Source of the DNA: a bacterium
GTDB taxonomy: Bacteria > Patescibacteriota > Patescibacteriia > UBA2591 > MWDC01
Direction: 5' to 3'
DNA: 64,000 bases
Assembly (NCBI GenBank): GCA_021158435.1
Contig: JAGGUQ010000005.1
Coordinates: 527 to 64,526, forward strand
Below the pieces are notes generated by a model, which worked only from the letters and a program-made list of their open reading frames with translations, was not told the DNA's origin and did not search any database. Position 1 is the first letter of the stretch; every line of letters starts with the position of its first letter. A program made the position numbers and the translations under genes. This document shows positions 43,639 to 57,185 of this stretch, piece after piece.

Positions 43639-44283
43639 TTATTTTTCCTCTTTTCTTACTGTCCCTTTATAAATCCAAACTTTTACTCCTACACACCCAT
43701 AAGTAGTAAAAGCAACTCCTTGAGCATAATCAATATCAGAATCTATAGTATGAAGAGGCATTTTCCCGTAAATCATTTTTTCAGAACGGGCAATTTCTAT
43801 CCCATCCAAACGTCCTTTTAAAATAATTTTCCCTCCTTTTGCTTTACTTTTGCTAATTCTATCAATAATTCTTTTCATTACTCGACGATAAGGAACCCTT
43901 TTTTCCAAAGCATTAACTGCTTCTTCTACTAAAACACCAGCTGAAAGTTCTGGCTGCTTTTCTTCAAAAACAGACAGTTCTAAAACTTGATTCTTATCAA
44001 TTAAACCTTCCAATTCTTTCTTTAAATTCTGGGCACCAACACCACCACGACCAATAACTAAACCTGGTTTAGCTGTGTAAATAAAAACTTTTATGTTGTT
44101 GCCTGTACGACTAATTTCAATATTAGAAACACCTGAACCTTTTAATCTCTTAGCAAGATAATCATAAATTAACTGATCTTCTTTAAGAAGTTTTGCATAA
44201 TCCTTCCCCAAAGCAAACCATTTTGATTGCCATTCTTTTACTTTGGGTATACGAAATATTTTTGGATGCACTTTCTGTCCCAT
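43639..44283 (-). CDS. rpsC: 30S ribosomal protein S3
   Basis: 214 aa; KH domain and S3 C-terminal domain. Confidence 0.95.
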   Translation of the reverse strand: MGQKVHPKIFRIPKVKEWQSKWFALGKDYAKLLKEDQLIYDYLAKRLKGSGVSNIEISRTGNNIKVFIYTAKPGLVIGRGGVGAQNLKKELEGLIDKNQVLELSVFEEKQPELSAGVLVEEAVNALEKRVPYRRVMKRIIDRISKSKAKGGKIILKGRLDGIEIARSEKMIYGKMPLHTIDSDIDYAQGVAFTTYGCVGVKVWIYKGTVRKEEK

Positions 44284-44288
44284 AATAA

Positions 44289-44903
44289 CTACTTTTTGTT
44301 ATTCTTTTCTGATAATTTATTTTTATCTTTCTTAAAAGGCAAAATATGAAAAGATTTCTTGTCTTTTTTCTTTTTTGAAGTGGGTTTCTTTTCTTCCTTC
44401 TTAATTTTTTCTTCTTTCTTTTCTTTTTTCTCTTCTAAGCCTTTTTCCTCTACTTTCTCTTTTTTCTGCTTTTCTTTTGCTTCTAATGCTTTATGCTCTT
44501 TTTCTTCCCCTTGGCTCTTTTTTAAAAAAGCCTCTTTTTCTTTACCAGCTAAAGGGGATAAAACAACTTCTAAATGGGAAGTTCTTCGACGAATAAGAAC
44601 AGATCTCCCCATTGCCCTTGGTCTCCACCTTTTTAACATTGGACCTGGGTTAGCTACTATCTTTTTTATAAAAAGAATTTCTGGATTTAAACTAAAATTA
44701 TGTTGAGCATTAGCTATAGCTGACTTAATTAATTTCTTTAATGGACGTGAAGCTTTTTTGTTAATATTTTCTAAATAATCCAATGCCCTGCCAACTTCCA
44801 TACCTTGAATCAAAGAAGTCAAAACCCTCACCTTTTTTGGTGACATTCTCAAATACCTTAACTTAGCTTTTACTTCTACTTGTTTGCTTTCTTGTTTATC
44901 CAT
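44289..44903 (-). CDS. rplV: 50S ribosomal protein L22 with ~85-aa K/E-rich C-terminal extension
   Basis: L22 core (residues ~10-118) then low-complexity KEKE tail to 204 aa. Confidence 0.9.
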   Translation of the reverse strand: MDKQESKQVEVKAKLRYLRMSPKKVRVLTSLIQGMEVGRALDYLENINKKASRPLKKLIKSAIANAQHNFSLNPEILFIKKIVANPGPMLKRWRPRAMGRSVLIRRRTSHLEVVLSPLAGKEKEAFLKKSQGEEKEHKALEAKEKQKKEKVEEKGLEEKKEKKEEKIKKEEKKPTSKKKKDKKSFHILPFKKDKNKLSEKNNKK

Positions 44904-44921
44904 AAAATCTTTTTACGATTA

Positions 44922-45224
44922 CTATGAAGAAGCTTTCTTTTTAGCCTCTTTTTCTAATCTTTCCTGCATTTTTCCTCCATGCTTAATAAACTTTCTAGTT
45001 GGGGCAAATTCTCCCAACTTATGGCCAATCATAGCCTCAGTAATTAAAACAGGAACATGGGTTTTACCATTATGAACTCCAATAGTAAAACCTACCATTT
45101 CTGGGACAATTGTTGAATCCCTAGACCATGTTTTAATAACAGTCTTATCTCCTGGTTTTAACCGGGAAATTTTTTTAAGTAATTTTGGATCTACCCAAAC
45201 CCCTTTTTTTAGCGACCGAGACAT
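44922..45224 (-). CDS. rpsS: 30S ribosomal protein S19
   Basis: 100 aa; [13 protein letters not shown]. Confidence 0.95.
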
Positions 45225-45258
45225 AATTTATTTCTTTATTTTAAATTATAAACAATTA

Positions 45259-46095
45259 TTATTTCTTTTTCTTTTTCTTTGCTCTCCTTTGAAGAATAAA
45301 TTTATTTGTCCACTTTTTTTTCTTTCTTGTTTTAACTCCTAAAGCTGGTTTGCCCCAAGGAGTTTTTGGATGCTTTAATCCAATAGGGCTATGACCTTCT
45401 CCCCCTCCATGTGGATGATCAACAGGATTCATTGCTTTTCCTCTTACTGAAGGACGAATTCCTAAATGTCTTATCCTTCCTGCTTTACCATATCTTACAT
45501 TTTTATTTTCTGGATTACTTACTGCACCAACTGTAGCCAAACATTCCTTGTTTATCTTTCTTCTTTCTCCTGAGGGCATTTTAACAATAGCATAATTACC
45601 CTCGATTCCTAAAATATAAGCAGCTGATCCAGCAGAACGAACCAATTTACCTCCTTTTAATGGTTCAAGTTCAAGGTTATGAATTGGCACACCATAGGGA
45701 ATATATTTTAAAGGCATTCTATTCCCTATCTTAGGCTCAATTTTTTTCAAAGATGAATAAATTTCTGTTTTTAAACCTATTTTATCTGGAGCTAAAATAT
45801 ACCTTTTTTCACCATCTTTGTAAACAACCAAAGCTATCCATGCTGTTCTATTTGGGTCATATTCCAAGCTTTCCACCCGTCCAGGGATATCAAATTTATT
45901 TTGATAAAAATCTACTTTTCGATAAAGCCTTTTTGCTCCACCTCCCCTATGCCTTACTGTAACTTTCCCTTGACTTCTCCCTTGTCTTTTTAATGACCCT
46001 TTTTTCAAAGATTTTGGAGCTTCAACAACAGGCTTTGGCGCTTCAACCACGCTTGCTTTACGACGAGATGGAGTTGTTGGTTTATAGTATTTCAT
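45259..46095 (-). CDS. rplB: 50S ribosomal protein L2
   Basis: MKYYKPTTPSRR start (ATG at 46095; track ORF starts 3 codons upstream at TTG); conserved L2 C-terminal blocks. Confidence 0.95.
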   Translation of the reverse strand: MKYYKPTTPSRRKASVVEAPKPVVEAPKSLKKGSLKRQGRSQGKVTVRHRGGGAKRLYRKVDFYQNKFDIPGRVESLEYDPNRTAWIALVVYKDGEKRYILAPDKIGLKTEIYSSLKKIEPKIGNRMPLKYIPYGVPIHNLELEPLKGGKLVRSAGSAAYILGIEGNYAIVKMPSGERRKINKECLATVGAVSNPENKNVRYGKAGRIRHLGIRPSVRGKAMNPVDHPHGGGEGHSPIGLKHPKTPWGKPALGVKTRKKKKWTNKFILQRRAKKKKKK

Positions 46096-46104
46096 TATAT
46101 CCAA

Positions 46105-47444
46105 AATTAACCTTTGTGAACTGCTCTACACCTAGCGGCGTAAAGCTTCCTGCTTCAAAGTCAAGGGTATTCCCTCAACTCCACAGGCGTTGATTCCCCT
46201 AGTCCCTAGGGTATTTAAAGCTAAATTAAGAATGTTTCTGGCTGCATTAATGTCTCTGTCTATTCTTAAACCGCACTTAGGACATTTATGTATTCTGGTG
46301 GCTAATGTTTTTTCAACAATATTTCCGCAACCAGAACATATTTGAGATGTATTCTTGGGATTAACTCCAATAGCCCATATACCAGCTTCCTCCGCTTTGT
46401 AGATAAGCATTTGGAGAAATCTTGCCCAAGAAGCATCAGCAATCGACCTTGAAAGATATTTATTCTTGCTCATGCCTTTGATATTTAATTGCTCAAAGGC
46501 AATGAATTGAAAGTTGCTTACTAATTTATGACTTAATTTGTGAAGAAAATCTAATCTTTGATTGGTAATTTTCTCATGCAATCTGGCTAACTTTATTCTT
46601 GATTTATTTCTGTTCTTGCTTTTTAGTTTTTTTCTAGAATGCCACCTTTGAACTCTAGCCAGTTTTTCTTCTGTTTCTTTTAAATATCTAGGATTATCTA
46701 TTTTCTCCTCTTTGTCAGTAGTAAGAAAGTTATCTAATCCCAGGTCAATCCCGAGTATATTTTTATCCTTGATGTTCTTGATATTTGGCTTAACTGGCAA
46801 TTCTTGATTAATTTCTACAGCAAAACAAGCAAACCATTTGTTAGTATTTGTTCTTCTGATGATTAGGGCTTTAATATTCCCCTTAATCTCTCGATGAAGT
46901 TTGATTTTAAGAGAACCTATTTTTGAGAGATTAAGCTTGTTATTTTTTAATTCAAAACCTGATTGGGGATAAACCATGCTATCATATCGATACTTTCCTT
47001 TAAATCTGGGATAACCTGGTTTTTGCTTTTTTCCATTTTTACTCTCTTCAACTCTTTTAAAGAAATTTTGAAAAGCTTTATCTAATCTCCTAATTACATC
47101 TTGAAGGGTTTGAGAGTAAACTTGGTTTAATTCTGGCCTTTCCTTTTTAAGTTTTGGTATTTCTTTTATCTGGTCATAGCAAGAAATCTTTGTTTTATCT
47201 TTTTCATAAGCATTTCTTCTTTGTTCTAAGCAATGATTGTAAAGCCACCTACAAAGACAAAGTTGTTTTTCAAGAAGAGTTTGTTGTGTCTTAGTTGGAT
47301 ATATTCTGTATTTGTAGGTTCTGATTAACATATTTGTTTTTGTTCCTTTAAGCTTATCTACAGTATAGCGGATTTTTCTTGTTTTTATGCCTCAGGTATA
47401 CATAACTATCATTTACTTGTCAAGAAACATTACAGGCTCTCATC
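46105..47444 (-). mobile_element. IS605-family (IS1341-like) element carrying solo tnpB, inserted between rplW and rplB
   Basis: Fills exactly the rplW-stop to rplB-start interval; GC-rich structured 3' end (candidate right end / omegaRNA scaffold) at 46105-46200; no tnpA in vicinity. Confidence 0.7.
46132..47331 (-). CDS. tnpB: IS200/IS605-family transposase accessory protein TnpB (RuvC-like RNA-guided nuclease family)
   Basis: 399 aa; N-terminal MLIRTYKYRIYPTKTQQTLLEKQL; C-terminal zinc finger CSGCG..x13..CPKCG and RuvC-III IDRDINAARNI. Confidence 0.85.
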   Translation of the reverse strand: MLIRTYKYRIYPTKTQQTLLEKQLCLCRWLYNHCLEQRRNAYEKDKTKISCYDQIKEIPKLKKERPELNQVYSQTLQDVIRRLDKAFQNFFKRVEESKNGKKQKPGYPRFKGKYRYDSMVYPQSGFELKNNKLNLSKIGSLKIKLHREIKGNIKALIIRRTNTNKWFACFAVEINQELPVKPNIKNIKDKNILGIDLGLDNFLTTDKEEKIDNPRYLKETEEKLARVQRWHSRKKLKSKNRNKSRIKLARLHEKITNQRLDFLHKLSHKLVSNFQFIAFEQLNIKGMSKNKYLSRSIADASWARFLQMLIYKAEEAGIWAIGVNPKNTSQICSGCGNIVEKTLATRIHKCPKCGLRIDRDINAARNILNLALNTLGTRGINACGVEGIPLTLKQEALRR

Positions 47445-47744
47445 TCATCCTTTATAAAAGTCTATTTTTTGTGTTTTTGGAATATAAACTAAAGCTTTTT
47501 TTCTCTTTTTTGTTCGACCAACGCTTCTTCCATATCTTACTGTTTTCCCTTTAAGATTAATAATCCTTATTTTCTCTGGCTGAACATTATACATTTTCTT
47601 TATTGCTTGCTTGATTAAAACTTTATTAGCCTGTGGGTGAACCCAAAAAGTATAAATATTATAATTCTGCAACTCTGTAGCTTTTTCAGTTACTACTGGT
47701 TCAATAATATACTCTGTTGGTTGTTTAGAAACTACTTTACTCAT
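47445..47744 (-). CDS. rplW: 50S ribosomal protein L23
   Basis: 99 aa; IIEPVVTEKA..YTFWV. Confidence 0.9.
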   Translation of the reverse strand: MSKVVSKQPTEYIIEPVVTEKATELQNYNIYTFWVHPQANKVLIKQAIKKMYNVQPEKIRIINLKGKTVRYGRSVGRTKKRKKALVYIPKTQKIDFYKG

Positions 47745-47745
47745 A

Positions 47746-48444
47746 TTATCCTAAATTAACCTTCTGTTTTTTTATTTTTTCACTTTTGTCTTGTTTCTTT
47801 TTCGAAGAAGCCAAAGGAGAATTTAACCTTTTTTCAATATCTTTAAAACCAAGAGAAGAAGACAACAAAAAATCAGCCCAAAGTATATCCTTTAAATTTA
47901 AGGTATCTGGGAAAAGGACTTTCAAATCAGCAATGTTTCTTAAAAAACGACCAAGCTTTTTTTCGCTTGGGTCCATAAAATAAATTATTTTCTTTCCTTG
48001 GCCAACAATTTTTAAAATAAAATTATAAAAATCCTTTGTTTTATTAAAATCAGGTGTTTCTAAGATAATTAATTTATTCTGCTCGATCTTGTCCTTCAAA
48101 GCTAAAGCCAAAGCCTTTTTTCTCATTTTTTTATTTATTTTCTGGGCAAAATTCCTTTGTTTTTGAGGACCAAAAACTACACCCCCTCCTTTCCACAAAG
48201 GACTACGAATAGACCCTGCTCTAGCTCGACCAGTTCCTTTTTGTCTCCATGGCTTTCTCCCACCGCCTTTTACTTCACCTCTTGTTTTAACATGAGCAAT
48301 AGGAGCCCTAGCATTAGCTAACATTCCCCTTAAAACAAAGGAAACCAAATCTTTGTCAGTCTTAGAATATACTGGTAAAATCTTAATTTTCTTTTTTTCT
48401 TTTTCCTCTGCCTTTTTATTGTAAACCTTTACTTCTAACTCCAT
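47746..48444 (-). CDS. rplD: 50S ribosomal protein L4
   Basis: 232 aa; GGGRKPWRQKGTGRARAGS. Confidence 0.9.
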   Translation of the reverse strand: MELEVKVYNKKAEEKEKKKIKILPVYSKTDKDLVSFVLRGMLANARAPIAHVKTRGEVKGGGRKPWRQKGTGRARAGSIRSPLWKGGGVVFGPQKQRNFAQKINKKMRKKALALALKDKIEQNKLIILETPDFNKTKDFYNFILKIVGQGKKIIYFMDPSEKKLGRFLRNIADLKVLFPDTLNLKDILWADFLLSSSLGFKDIEKRLNSPLASSKKKQDKSEKIKKQKVNLG

Positions 48445-48456
48445 ATCCTTTTATAA

Positions 48457-48900
48457 TTATTCCTTTGAAATTATTTCAACTTTGCTTTTCACAGCTCCAG
48501 GAACTGCTCCCTTAACTAAAACTAAGCCTTTTGCTTTATCAAATTCAACTACTTCTAAATTCTTTACAGTTACTCTTTTATTTCCCATACGACCAGGCAT
48601 TTTTTTCCCTTTCCAAACTCTCTGCGGGCCAGTAGCACCTATTGATCCTGGTTCACGATGAGCATGCTTTGTTCCATGGCTTGCCGGCGCACCATGAAAT
48701 CCATACCTCTTTACTACACCTTGAAATCCTTTACCTTTAGATATACCTCTTACATCTACCTTTTTGCCTTCCTCCAACCAGGACAAGTCAATATCTTCTT
48801 TATCTTTTATAATCTGTAATTTTGTCACAGGAATCACATAGTCTTCCCTAAAGACCTGTGACATACCAAGTTTGTAAGACAAAATTTTCGCCATAATCAA
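48457..48900 (-). CDS. rplC: 50S ribosomal protein L3, unusually short (147 aa)
   Basis: [40 protein letters not shown] core present; ~60 aa shorter than typical bacterial L3. Confidence 0.85.
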
Positions 48901-48920
48901 AAATCAGAAAAAATTTTTAC

Positions 48921-48949
48921 TCAAAAAACTGGGCAACCAAAGCCCAGTT
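48921..48949 (-). terminator. intrinsic-terminator-like hairpin (attenuator candidate) between rpsJ and rplC
   Basis: minus-strand aacugggc-uuugguu-gcccaguu (8-bp perfect stem) followed by uuuuuga. Confidence 0.4.
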
Positions 48950-48999
48950 CGCTCTTTAAGATTTGTTCTTAAAGTTATCCTGAGGCCCTCTTGGATTTT

Positions 49000-49359
49000 C
49001 TACATCTTTATTTCAATATTCACGCTACTTGGCAAGCGGAGATTTCTTAATACCTCTATTGTTTCTGGGGTAAAGTCAGTGACATCTACTAACCTTTTAT
49101 GAATCCTCATCTCGTATTGATCTCGAGAATCCTTATGAACAAAAGTAGATTTTAAGACTGTATAAACTTTTCTTTCTGTTGGCAGAAAAATCGGTCCGCT
49201 TGTTTTTGCTCCTGAACGCTCTAATGCTTCAATAATTGTCTTGAGAACCTCATCAATAACTCTGTGGTCATAAGAGCGAATCTTAATACGGATCTTTGGT
49301 TTATCAGCATTTTCTCCTCTTTTGGAGACTTTTTTAGTTTCTTTATTCACTGTAATCAT
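49000..49359 (-). CDS. rpsJ: 30S ribosomal protein S10
   Basis: 119 aa; KIRIKIRSYDHRVIDE.. Confidence 0.95.
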   Translation of the reverse strand: MITVNKETKKVSKRGENADKPKIRIKIRSYDHRVIDEVLKTIIEALERSGAKTSGPIFLPTERKVYTVLKSTFVHKDSRDQYEMRIHKRLVDVTDFTPETIEVLRNLRLPSSVNIEIKM

Positions 49360-49445
49360 TGTAAGAAATGAACAAGATTATACTCTACCACCTTGCTGTG
49401 GTGAAAACATTATAAGGGTTATAAAGTAATAAGCAGAATATTGCC

Positions 49446-50660
49446 TTATTTTATAATCTTAGTAATAACTCCTGCTCCTACAGTCTTTCCTCCTTCTCTA
49501 AAAGCAAATCTTTGCTGTTCTTCAATAGCAACTGGTTTAATAAGTTTAACTTTAACAACTAAGTTGTCACCAGGCATTGCCATTTCAGTACCCTCTGGCA
49601 AAGTAACCTCACCAGTAACGTCTGTAGTCCTTAAATAGACCTGTGGCTTGTATCCACTAAAGAAAGGAGTATGTCGGCCTCCTTCATCCTTAGATAAAAC
49701 ATACAATTTACCTTCAAATTCAGTATGAGGAGTAATGGATCCAGGTTTACAAATAACCTGACCCCTTTCAACTTCGTTCTTTTTAATTCCTCTTAAAAGA
49801 ATACCAGCATTATCACCTGCTCGACCTTCATCTAAGGATTTTCTAAACATTTCAATTCCAGTGACAACTGTTTTTTGAGTAGGTCTTAATCCAACAATTT
49901 CAACTTCGTCATTTAATTTAACAACTCCCCTTTCAATTCGTCCAGTAACAACAGTTCCTCTACCTTCAATAGAGAAAATGTCCTCAATTGGCATTAAAAA
50001 CGGCTTATCAATATCTCTTTCTGGCTCAGGAATGTAGGAATCTAAAGCATCAAGAAGCTTAAAAATTGGCCCGCAATTAGGACAATCTCTCTTTCCGCAA
50101 CCACATTCTAAAGCTTTTAAAGCAGACCCTTCAATAATTGGAATTTCGTCTCCAGGAAATTCATATTTTTTCAAAAGGTCTTTAATTTCTTCCTTAACTA
50201 ACTCAATCATTTCTTCCCTATCCTTTTCATCAAGAGCATCTATCTTATTTAAGAAGACAACCATTGCTGGTACTCCAACCTGACGAGCTAAAAGAATGTG
50301 CTCTCTTGTCTGAGGCATAGGACCATCAGGAGCAGAAACAACCAAAATAGCTCCATCCATCTGAGCTGCTCCAGTAATCATATTCTTGATGTAGTCAGCA
50401 TGACCAGGACAATCAATGTGAGCATAGTGTCTCTTGTCAGTCTCATACTCAACATGAGCTAAAGCAATAGTAATACCTCTTTGCTTTTCTTCTGGAGCGC
50501 TGTCAATTTGGTCAACAGATTTCTGGTCGGCCTTTTTACCAGCAGCAGCTAAACATTTTAAAATTGCTGCAGTTAAAGTAGTTTTTCCATGATCAACATG
50601 GCCAATTGTTCCAACATTAAGATGTGGTTTTTCTCTAACAAATTTTTCTTTTTCAGCCAT
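49446..50660 (-). CDS. tuf: elongation factor Tu (with Cys4 insertion in domain I)
   Basis: 404 aa; [22 protein letters not shown]; insertion [18 protein letters not shown] where most EF-Tu have ALEGD(AE)WE.. Confidence 0.95.
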
Positions 50661-55247: not shown

Positions 55248-55952
55248 TTATCTTCCCGCCAAATAAACGTTTTTTAGTTTCTCGTCGCTTAAAACCTCTT
55301 TTCCACCCTTCAGGACAATCTTGCCGCCTTCTAAAATATAAGTCCTGTGAGCAATTTCTGCTGCTTTCTTAACATTTTGCTCAACAATAATTATTGATAT
55401 GCCTTGTTTATTAATTTCTTTTATCTTTTCAAAAATTTCTTTCATTACTTTTGGTGCTAGCCCTAAAGAGGGTTCATCTAAAAGAAGTAATTCTGGGTCC
55501 TGAATTAGCGCTCTTGCTATAGCCAACATTTGTTGTTGGCCTCCGGACAAAGTAAAAGCTCTATCATTCTGCTTTTGTTTCAAAACCGGAAATTTTTCAA
55601 AAACGTCTTCCAAGTTTCTTTTAAATAACTTATGGTCTTTCATTATAAAAGCCCCCATTTCCAAATTTTCCCGGACAGTCAACGTGGGAAATATCTGCCT
55701 TCCTTGGGGAACATAAGAAATTCCTTCATAAATCAGGTAATAAGTGGGAAGATTTGTAATATCTTTATTCTTATATTCAATAGTTCCATTATAAATCTCA
55801 CATAAGTTAAAAATACTCTTTAATAGAGTTGATTTCCCAGCTCCATTGGGCCCGATCAAAGCCACAATTTCCGCTGGCTTTACTTCTAAGTCAACCCCAT
55901 GCAATATCTCCATTCCATTGTAGCCAGACTTTAGATTTTGGATATTGAGCAT
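55248..55952 (-). CDS. livF: LIV-type (HAAT family) ABC transporter ATP-binding protein LivF-like
   Basis: 234 aa; LIGPNGAGKSTLL Walker A, LSGGQQQMLAIARAL signature, LLLDEPS Walker B. Confidence 0.85.
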   Translation of the reverse strand: MLNIQNLKSGYNGMEILHGVDLEVKPAEIVALIGPNGAGKSTLLKSIFNLCEIYNGTIEYKNKDITNLPTYYLIYEGISYVPQGRQIFPTLTVRENLEMGAFIMKDHKLFKRNLEDVFEKFPVLKQKQNDRAFTLSGGQQQMLAIARALIQDPELLLLDEPSLGLAPKVMKEIFEKIKEINKQGISIIIVEQNVKKAAEIAHRTYILEGGKIVLKGGKEVLSDEKLKNVYLAGR

Positions 55953-56518
55953 ACAATTGGTCTTAAATATTTATTAAGCCGGGTATAATCCACTCTTTTT
56001 AAATAAGTTTTTAACCTTTTTTTATTCAAGCCCTCTAAATTCATCTCCTCTATATCAAATTTAGCATAACCATTTAATGAAAGATAAGCCTGATCTAAAA
56101 GGGCTTTCTCAGGAGTCGCGACTAAATAATTAGCTTCTTTTTTATACCCCCAAAACATTCTCTCTTGTAAATGATGGTAAATCAAATTCCTCTGACTTGT
56201 TTTTATAGTTTTACTTCTATTTATAGTAGCCAAGGTCAAATGAATAGGCTTTTGGCTCATTATATTATAATAACTTAACGCCCATTCAAAAGAAAGATAA
56301 CTTGGATAATAAATTTCTACAGCTAAACTCTGCCAATCAACTTTATTAATGTTAATAGTATAAACCCCTCTGGTAATTCTAATTAACTTCTTATCTTTTA
56401 CCAACCGATTGAGAGCTACTTTTAAACTTTTATCACTAAGATTGGTAATCTTTTTTATGTCAGCAAAATAAAAATAGGTTTTGGGAATAGATTTAATTCT
56501 TTCTGCTAATTTTTTCAT
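55931..56518 (-). CDS. abiEi: AbiEi-family antitoxin / regulator (second copy), encoded downstream of its toxin
   Basis: 195 aa; ITRGVYTININ and YYPSYLSFEWALSYYNIM paralogous to 5555..6205 protein. Confidence 0.6.
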   Translation of the reverse strand: MKKLAERIKSIPKTYFYFADIKKITNLSDKSLKVALNRLVKDKKLIRITRGVYTININKVDWQSLAVEIYYPSYLSFEWALSYYNIMSQKPIHLTLATINRSKTIKTSQRNLIYHHLQERMFWGYKKEANYLVATPEKALLDQAYLSLNGYAKFDIEEMNLEGLNKKRLKTYLKRVDYTRLNKYLRPIVCSISKI

Positions 56519-57185
56519 ATAATTGTTGAATTACTGGATAATATTCTTTAGGTAAAAATACTTGTAATTCGTTCCTAAACTCTCGCTCAGAGTATTTTGG
56601 CATCTTCTCTGGCAAAACAAAATTTTCTCTTAACAACCTAGAAATATACCATAAGTCGAAAACATCTCTTGCTTTTTTTCTTTTACTTAAACTTTCTTGC
56701 TTTAGTTTTTTTAATTCTGTGATAGTTGGGACTAAAAGCAATGGCTCTAAGGCACTAACTGGGCTTTTAATTAAAGATAATTCCTTGTCTAATTTTATTC
56801 TCTTATTTGGTTTATGAATTTCTACTTTTATAGAAAATGCGTGTTTTAACTTATTGTCCTTGATTAAAAATAAAGCAAACATTGTCTTTCTTTTATCCTT
56901 AGCATCTTTCAGTTGCCAATTTTGGTTATCTTTAACTGTTTGTTTAACCAAATCTCTAAAATCCGAAAAATTTATTTTCTTTATTTGAATCAAGTCTATA
57001 TCTTCTGAAAAACGGGGTGAACCATAAACCAGCCGCAAAGCTGTTCCTCCATAGAAAATAAGCTTAGAGGAAATTTTATGCTTAGCTAGCGCATTTAAAA
57101 AAATCACTTCTGCTTCTTCCTGTAAAATTCTATCTGCTGATATTTTTATTTTTTCAACCAAATTGTTTAATGTTTCAATATCCAT
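56493..57185 (-). CDS. abiEii: AbiEii/AbiGii-family nucleotidyltransferase toxin (second copy)
   Basis: 230 aa; LIFYGGTALRLVYGSPRFSEDIDLIQ and KARDVFDLWYI motifs. Confidence 0.75.
   Translation of the reverse strand: MDIETLNNLVEKIKISADRILQEEAEVIFLNALAKHKISSKLIFYGGTALRLVYGSPRFSEDIDLIQIKKINFSDFRDLVKQTVKDNQNWQLKDAKDKRKTMFALFLIKDNKLKHAFSIKVEIHKPNKRIKLDKELSLIKSPVSALEPLLLVPTITELKKLKQESLSKRKKARDVFDLWYISRLLRENFVLPEKMPKYSEREFRNELQVFLPKEYYPVIQQLYEKISRKN

Follow-up and report, generated by a model that had tools for sequence, protein, structure and literature searches.

A 64,000-nucleotide (nt) stretch of DNA from a bacterium of the Patescibacteriota (GenBank assembly GCA_021158435.1, contig JAGGUQ010000005.1, positions 527 to 64,526 of the forward strand; hereafter the window) carries an IS200/IS605-type insertion sequence (IS) with tnpB and no transposase gene, tnpA, in the midst of its S10 ribosomal protein operon. 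We consider it likely that this is a non-autonomous, tnpA-deleted solo-tnpB element, probably stranded between rplW and rplB, which still encodes TnpB together with an omegaRNA whose guide is taken from the rplB leader. The host is a low-GC (33%) member of the Patescibacteria, and relatives of the TnpB are annotated as belonging to Nealsonbacteria or Patescibacteria. Between 42 and 54 kb the minus strand of the window holds a standard str/S10/spc ribosomal gene cluster, as judged from the list of open reading frames (ORFs) and from Pfam labels on the same contig. A sequence-only reading made before this analysis had described a solo-tnpB element of the IS200/IS605 family, lying between rplW and rplB and oriented like the S10 operon around it, and both the ORFs and the domains of their products agree with that description. 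All positions given below are those of the window unless another contig is named; the contigs and loci used for comparison are referred to by our labels (L001 and the like).

The tnpB ORF (46132..47331, minus strand) lies between rplW and rplB on the same strand as both, and on the evidence of domain matches and alignment its product of 399 amino acids (aa) is a TnpB of the IS200/IS605 type with a predicted intact nuclease site. It matches the Pfam families HTH_OrfB_IS605, OrfB_IS605 and Cas12f1-like_TNB with 54.4, 96.6 and 88.8 bits, respectively (cut-offs 21, 30.5 and 26.3), as well as the NCBIfam model guided_TnpB with 340 bits (cut-off 100), and residues 5-378 align with the TnpB of ISDra2 (8H1J/8BF8; E=6e-57). 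The RuvC triad comprises D196 (in GIDLG), E280 (in IAFEQ) and D360 (in DRDIN), which are aligned to the catalytic positions of the ISDra2 TnpB, and the zinc finger is made up of C332-x2-C335 and C350-x2-C353. These matches uphold the earlier recognition of a full-length TnpB with zinc finger and RuvC motifs, and a loss of catalytic RuvC residues, which would have pointed to an inactive relic, has not taken place in the window copy, where all three are present.

The ends of the insert were set by aligning filled alleles (the window, L095 and L188) to empty ones (L096, L101 and L104). The inserted block is 1338 nt long and occupies 46116..47453 on the minus strand, with a placement that is ambiguous by up to 7 nt owing to a flanking repeat; the coordinates first proposed, 46105-47444, were off by about 10 nt. 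Upstream lies rplW (L23, 99 aa; 47445..47744, minus strand), identified from the ORF list, from the Pfam domain Ribosomal_L23 on the same gene in L001 and from the junction sequences. Downstream, rplB (L2, 278 aa; 45259..46095, minus strand; ORF list) starts with an ATG at 46095 and is the first essential gene beyond the element. The two genes are indeed separated by the element, but it is not strictly intergenic as had been supposed: the point of insertion is within the final codons of rplW, after the TAT of ...GAC TTT TAT, and the first bases of the insert re-create the rplW stop as AAA GGA TGA (the last two codons and the stop, encoded by the left copy of the 7-nt repeat). The filled allele reads ...GAC TTT TAT AAAGGAT/GAGATGAGAGCC ... 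GCAGTTCAC/AAAGGTTAATTTTGGATATA ATG, with slashes after the left repeat and at the right end. Insertion was tolerated probably because rplW and the full rplB leader are both intact. The right end of the element, at 46116, reads ...GTTCAC, and shared similarity stops there in 34 family loci; the 14 close and 20 distant relatives compared (archaeal ones included) diverge just past ...(G)TTCAC or ...GTCAC.

An element-free rplW-rplB junction, proposed earlier as the reference against which the ends should be defined, is available from sister strains. Exact look-up of the L2 protein found 10 places, seven with TnpB upstream of rplB and three with rplW and then rplB. In the latter (contigs L096, L101 and L104) the L2 protein is identical, no element is present, and 11 nt separate the rplW stop from the rplB ATG; flank identity between filled and empty contigs is 98.5-99.3%. 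A similar exact look-up of the L23 sequence matched no record. We also surveyed the spacing in about 70 more distant Patescibacteria loci, obtained by a metagenome scan with L2 (relatives at most 63% identical, used for spacing and not for junctions). There the rplW-rplB gap is 12-236 nt and holds TnpB in no case, and a spacing of 1.3 kb without TnpB, which might have betrayed a misidentified ORF, was not seen. Within the 64-kb window we detected no second copy of the element, no additional tnpB, no stray right end and no tnpA save a 13-codon remnant, in keeping with the earlier statement that TnpA is absent. A literature search found no relevant report of TnpB or IS insertions in ribosomal protein operons. 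GC skew is about 0 within the element (46116-47453) versus -0.2 to -0.5 in the flanking ribosomal genes; this contrast is a compositional mark of foreign origin that the age of the insertion has not erased.

The last ~100 nt of the element form three stem-loops (SL) followed by AGUUCAC (minimum free energy -44.3 kcal/mol, z = -3.66). The omegaRNA core predicted from this fold and from covariation (46116..46211, minus strand) consists of SL1 (CCCTAG/CTAGGG), a long SL2 and a terminal SL3, then AGTTCAC, and overlaps the final 27 codons of tnpB; the 5' end of the omegaRNA may lie upstream of this core. RNAalifold recovered SL1 and SL2 with compensatory changes, and the terminal hairpin SL3 is found in 34 of 34 loci, in quite different sequences. 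The three-hairpin structure leaves 83.5% of cells paired, versus 36-48% when the partners are slid by 1-3 columns. Changes on both sides occur in 15 of the 32 omegaRNA pairs, and the observed covariation score was reached in none of 500 shuffles. The scaffold had been expected at the GC-rich 3' terminus, and these three covarying stem-loops are found there. A covariance-model search, suggested at the same time, did not yield a named family: an Rfam scan of 44000-49500 at E<=1 gave no match to a curated omegaRNA, a group I intron or a ribosomal protein leader. Beyond the close family, a 3' module of the form GAAGC - hairpin - (G)AG-N-AGTCAC is common to bacterial and archaeal TnpB elements with 41-55% protein identity (L115-L145), whose hosts are Dehalococcoidia, Aerophobetes, Methanosarcinales/ANME and Armatimonadota. 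This conserved module could serve as an anchor to locate right ends and guides.

Past the right end, the 20 nt of the putative guide, AAAGGTTAATTTTGGATATA (46096..46115, minus strand), make up the whole rplB leader to the ATG, and the first seven of them are the right copy of the repeat. The guide had been expected to derive from the adjacent rplB 5' region, and this is where it falls. The inferred transposon-adjacent motif (TAM), TTTAT, lies directly 5' of the insert within the rplW codons TTT TAT (47454..47458, minus strand; from comparison of empty and filled alleles). Of nine relatives whose left end can be recognised as complete, seven have TTAT directly outside it, one has TTAC and one has TCAT, and TTTAT is the experimentally defined TAM of the G. 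stearothermophilus TnpB2 (bioRxiv 10.1101/2023.03.14.532601).

The empty allele of L101 and L104 reads ...GAC TTT TAT AAA GGT TAA TTTTGGATATA ATG; that of L096 is the same but for GGA, and equals TTTAT + AAAGGATAATTTTGGATATA. TTTAT joined to AAAGGTTAATTTTGGATATA reproduces the L101/L104 empty allele exactly, and L096 differs from it by a single A/T at guide position 6. In a filled chromosome the DNA that encodes the guide follows GTTCAC, which is not a TAM, and the TTTAT of the left junction is followed by only five guide-matching bases. No other TAM with a target for the guide was found in the 64-kb window. Since TAM and guide together equal the empty allele, the locus appears to have the standard TnpB anti-loss or homing arrangement, and the logic of donor-joint targeting has been described for ISDra2 (Karvelis 2021) and for ISGst elements (Meers 2023). 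The self-addressed arrangement that the sequence-only reading had envisaged therefore stands as far as the match to the sister strains' empty allele goes, but it is generic to all TnpB elements and not a peculiarity of this locus. We also considered whether the L096 allele is immune to TnpB. This idea is weakened by published results, in which a TnpB could still cleave targets with one mismatch if the cognate TAM was strong (PMC11043419), and we keep it as a conjecture only.

The left end of the element appears to be truncated. Alignment with L007, L106, L110, L113 and L114 delimits a remnant, GAGATGAGAGCCTGTAATG... (47424..47446, minus strand), which corresponds to the 3' half of a conserved structure, and the 5' half (~31-38 nt, with the partner arms) is absent from the window element. 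In the relatives 38-45 nt lie between the TAM and GAGATGA, where the window has only AAAGGAT. Their inner left hairpin (e.g., CCCCC-TTTA-GGGGG) resembles their right-end hairpin, and the 3' arm of their outer left stem is the GCCT of GAGAGCCTG. In the window the 3' arms are kept, the partners are replaced by true rplW coding sequence, and the left end has no stable fold; DNA folding accordingly gave nested left-end stems in relatives and none in the window element, which has the right-end subterminal hairpin and not the left-end one. In the model for IS608 and ISDra2, TnpA requires both subterminal hairpins. With an incomplete left end, the element is thus probably not excisable, and we regard it as probably immobile and stuck at the rplW-rplB junction. 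An alternative MAFFT alignment, in which the last 14 codons of rplW serve as a degenerate full left end, was rejected, as the peptide ...KKALVYIPKTQKIDFYKG is identical in the empty alleles; we take it to match the conserved C-terminus of L23 as known from E. coli.

The insert is flanked by an imperfect direct repeat of 7 nt, whose left copy, AAAGGAT (47447..47453, minus strand), agrees with AAAGGTT of the right flank in six of its seven positions. No duplication is seen in canonical relatives; at the position of AAAGGAT, relatives have AGGGGAT, AGGGGAC or AAGAGAT. The left copy could be what is left of the 3' arm of the hairpin at that end, or it could be duplicated target. If it is a hairpin residue, the deletion that left AAAGGAT behind would have been favoured for restoring the C-terminus of L23 (K-G-stop).

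Traces of the lost transposase gene persist between the left end and tnpB. Searches with tblastn and blastn against the tnpA of L185 revealed the first 13 codons of tnpA (IKTRKIRYTVDKL; 47350..47388, minus strand), with the start ATG changed to ATA and 21 of 24 nt identical to the L185 gene. A promoter-like site, TTGACA-17 nt-TATACC (47395..47423, minus strand), was missed by the consensus scan because its -10 hexamer ends in C; the same promoter-like sequence occurs upstream of the L185 tnpA (TCTTGACAAGTAAAT...TGTATAC). The retention of 13 tnpA codons and of this shared promoter indicates that the element is a tnpA-deletion derivative.

The orientation of the element may have a mechanistic cause. 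Plus-strand GC skew is negative over the whole window, even where genes lie on the plus strand, which makes it most likely that the minus strand is leading. Excision and insertion of IS200/IS605 elements both take place on the lagging-strand template (Karvelis 2021). With the minus strand leading, that template would be the sense strand for both the operon and tnpB. Co-orientation with the operon may thus follow from the mechanism of transposition, and selection need not be invoked. No terminator was predicted on the minus strand within the element and no consensus promoter between tnpB and rplB, which makes read-through the likely source of rplB transcription. Co-expression of tnpB with the ribosomal genes is plausible from this layout, and the element also has a promoter-like site of its own. 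TnpB can cut its own mRNA to form the 5' end of the omegaRNA, and the operon transcript may be processed at the 3' part of tnpB.

Homologues of this TnpB are numerous: more than 6,600 were scored at E<=1e-10, with about 80 at 65-77% identity. The relatives that we examined (68-77% identity) occupy unrelated neighbourhoods, as expected for a mobile family. The closest of them, L185 (77%), is a complete IS with an overlapping Y1 tnpA, and L109, L110, L113 and L114 share both the solo architecture and the ribosome-binding region of tnpB with the window element. In L113 (2722-2827) the right end of a TnpB element lies 30 nt upstream of a co-oriented tRNA-Arg, and in L186 (1169-1240, 3004-3076) a TnpB element is situated between tRNA-Pro and tRNA-Ala. 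Family members seem to use the few short spacers beside highly transcribed genes in compact genomes.

Near-identical contigs allowed us to examine the history of the insertion. Their flanks fall into two groups about 1.0% apart. Group 1 comprises the window, L001 and L002, all filled, and group 2 comprises L188, L097 and L100, which are filled, and L096, L101 and L104, which are empty. Copies of the element from the two groups are 1.2% apart and have identical junctions, from which we infer a single insertion older than the ~1% strain split. All eight members of the TnpB protein cluster at 99% or above, plus every contig examined, have the gene at rplW-rplB. Filled L188 and empty L096 show 4 differences in 4343 flank positions, and the empty alleles are most simply read as secondary losses, with recombination as an alternative. 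The same A/T difference that distinguishes the two flanking repeats also distinguishes the empty alleles (AAAGGAT in L096, AAAGGTT in L101/L104). Deletion between the two 7-mers would yield a junction with T (L101, L104) or with A (L096), and this would explain the A/T difference among empty alleles.

Variation within tnpB points to constraint. The filled haplotypes carry 11 synonymous and 9 non-synonymous variants (pN/pS ~0.2), where a ratio of about 1:4 (synonymous to non-synonymous) is expected (P = 0.001-0.02 for kappa 1-8), and by this measure tnpB is under purifying selection. One filled contig, L097 (JGI 3300033150, Ga0366835_1013063), has an in-frame 39-nt deletion at tnpB nt 829-867 (window ~46465-46503). 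The deletion removes IAFEQLNIKGMSK with the catalytic Glu of RuvC-II and leaves the remaining ORF open; this contig would encode a natural, nuclease-dead variant of TnpB, located where the intact copies are. A further contig, L189 (JGI 3300016457, Ga0186713_161834), was excluded as a likely chimeric or strain-mixed assembly. It runs L23-TnpB-L2 (299 aa) and then EF-Tu and S10 again, with 38 mismatches in 880 nt of rplB.

Taken together, we propose the following course of events for a stranded element. It inserted 3' of the TTTAT in the final codons of rplW, oriented as single-strand transposition favours, and the 5' part of its left end, with the arms of the transposase-binding hairpins, is missing. 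The tnpB mRNA would come from the operon transcript and/or from the element's own promoter, and TnpB would process the 3' part of that mRNA into omegaRNA. The resulting complex would cut chromosomes in which TTTAT is joined to the rplB leader, that is, an empty allele produced when the element is deleted or when an empty strain recombines with a filled one, and cells or chromosomes that lose the element would be repaired from a filled copy or eliminated. Throughout, rplB and later genes would rely on read-through transcription across the element. Several observations weigh against this proposal. The left-end truncation is deduced by comparison with relatives whose proteins are 69-72% identical, L185 as the closest relative differs upstream of the promoter, and left ends vary within the family. 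IS200/IS605 elements normally insert without duplicating their target, but here an imperfect repeat of 7 nt brackets the insert. Retention is not absolute, given the loss of the catalytic Glu in L097 and of the whole element in three contigs. Finally, the classical reason for TnpB, namely the re-filling of the donor joint after excision, would not apply if the element is non-excisable.

Other explanations have to be weighed against a stranded element that still encodes a guided TnpB. The element could be a neutral relic, a tolerated dead-end insertion whose TnpB and omegaRNA are inert and are slowly being inactivated and lost. Such decay would account for the truncated left end, the occurrence at one site only and the in-frame deletion of the RuvC-II Glu in L097, and it agrees with the nesting of empty alleles in a filled group-2 haplotype (4/4343 nt versus L188), which suggests secondary loss. 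We consider it unlikely, as the synonymous excess in tnpB over ~1% divergence argues for purifying selection, and the window copy has kept its catalytic triad, its zinc finger and all of its omegaRNA stems. It is also very improbable, in our judgement, that the element is still mobile through recognition of its short left end by a TnpA whose gene lies elsewhere in the genome. In favour of mobility, both cleavage sites exist, with TTTAT right at the left boundary and a canonical right end; tnpA-bearing relatives occur in Patescibacteria, and the left ends of the family are variable. A mobile element would perhaps use the CTTT-TAT-AAAG hairpin at the end of rplW, and the empty alleles would, as part of this very improbable account, be TnpA excision products or never-occupied sites. 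However, the hairpins at the two ends resemble each other in relatives, whereas that of rplW does not look like ACGCC-GCTA-GGTGT at the right end, and the partner of the outer stem is absent. No copy was found elsewhere among all near-identical sequences on record, and L096 keeps the A of the left repeat, which precise TnpA excision at TTTAT and GTTCAC would not.

A different possibility is that an immobile TnpB is kept by selection for a new role, either as an addiction nuclease that kills empty junctions or as a modulator acting on the rplB leader at the RNA level. We regard this as distinctly unlikely; were it true, the alleles (intact, nuclease-dead, lost-A and lost-T) would be a snapshot of a conflict or of early domestication. 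In a particular form of domestication in progress, TnpB on an omegaRNA retained in the mRNA would occupy the rplB leader and tune the translation or the stability of the message for rplB and downstream genes. The guide is the entire 20-nt rplB leader, including the probable ribosome-binding site, tnpB shows purifying selection in a seemingly immobile element, and an in-frame nuclease-dead variant exists (L097); moreover, nuclease-dead relatives of TnpB are known to have become RNA-guided repressors (TldR). This proposal nevertheless deserves hardly any credence, considering that near-identical strains live without the element, that the RuvC triad is intact in most copies, that the window holds no second TAM-flanked target, that the arrangement is absent from the ~70 related lineages, and that a regulatory role of TnpB at the RNA level is not known. 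A stranded, tnpA-deleted element with its omegaRNA and rplB-leader guide thus remains the reading that we favour.

TnpB is among the most abundant prokaryotic genes, and its accepted role is the re-filling of the excision site. The present locus is a further case of this well-understood kind, and the known picture of TnpB biology is unchanged by it. Less ordinary are its site in an essential operon of a reduced genome, the combination of an apparently disabled left end with purifying selection on tnpB, and the natural allelic series. These features make a natural test case, with a single-site copy in an essential and highly transcribed operon, filled and empty alleles on near-identical backgrounds, and a defined target. 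If the nuclease is active, the locus would exemplify retention or anti-loss without transposition; if it is inactive, the locus would be a record of element decay. In addition, the compact TnpB of 399 aa, with its short scaffold and TTTAT TAM, is a further candidate for genome editing.

Several neighbouring genes of the ribosomal cluster have unusual features of their own. The L3 gene (48457-48900, minus strand) encodes 145-147 aa versus ~210 aa in E. coli; the protein seems to miss an internal N-terminal segment of ~60 aa, and ~100 nt of non-coding DNA separate the gene from rpsJ. L22 (44289-44903, minus strand) has a Lys/Glu-rich C-terminal extension of ~90 aa and is split in contig L099, and L4 (47746-48444, minus strand) has a Lys-rich tail of strain-dependent length (197, 229 or 232 aa called). 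Both tails are of low complexity and prone to indels. The 5' part of rplB (45990-46075, minus strand) encodes a short tandem peptide repeat near the N-terminus of L2 (VVEAPKPVVEAPKS). Just upstream of the str operon lie an AbiEii/AbiEi toxin-antitoxin pair and an ABC-type ATPase (55248-57185, minus strand; L001 146-2083).

Among known systems, the TnpB and omegaRNA (reRNA) of ISDra2 from Deinococcus radiodurans (8H1J, 8BF8, 8EXA) offer an instructive comparison. Both proteins have the RuvC D/E/D triad and the zinc finger. In both elements the scaffold overlaps the 3' end of tnpB and stops at the right end, the guide comes from the flank, and TAM plus flank equal the donor joint or empty site (Karvelis 2021). 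The TAM of ISDra2 is TTGAT, whereas the one inferred here is TTTAT/TTAT. Unlike ISDra2, the window element has no tnpA, its left end is truncated, and its scaffold core is shorter (three stem-loops within ~100-130 nt). ISGst2 of G. stearothermophilus is likewise a non-autonomous, tnpB-only element of the IS605 family with the TAM TTTAT, and by cutting the donor joint its TnpB2 nuclease helps the element to be retained (Meers et al., bioRxiv 10.1101/2023.03.14.532601). In contrast to the ISGst elements, which are multi-copy and mobilised in trans by TnpA, the present element occupies a single site in an essential operon and has an incomplete left end.

The architecture is also like that of the IS1341-type grouping of ISfinder, IS200/IS605 elements that have tnpB as their only gene between a left and a right end. 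The window element is IS1341-like in this respect, and it demonstrably derives from an ancestor with both tnpA and tnpB by internal deletion. As in IStrons, a TnpB element resides within transcribed host genes at little cost. Here, however, the cost is limited by the preserved rplW stop and rplB leader and not by splicing, and we do not class the element as an IStron, since the Rfam scan of 44000-49500 (E<=1) found no group I intron. Nor do we assign it to the TldR proteins: the nuclease site in the window is intact, the guide has no match but its own flank, where no TAM is present when the site is filled, no second TAM with target lies in the window, and the element is dispensable in sister strains. 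What it shares with TldR is the state of an immobilised TnpB derivative with a fixed guide beside host genes, and, in the L097 variant, a protein without the RuvC-II Glu.

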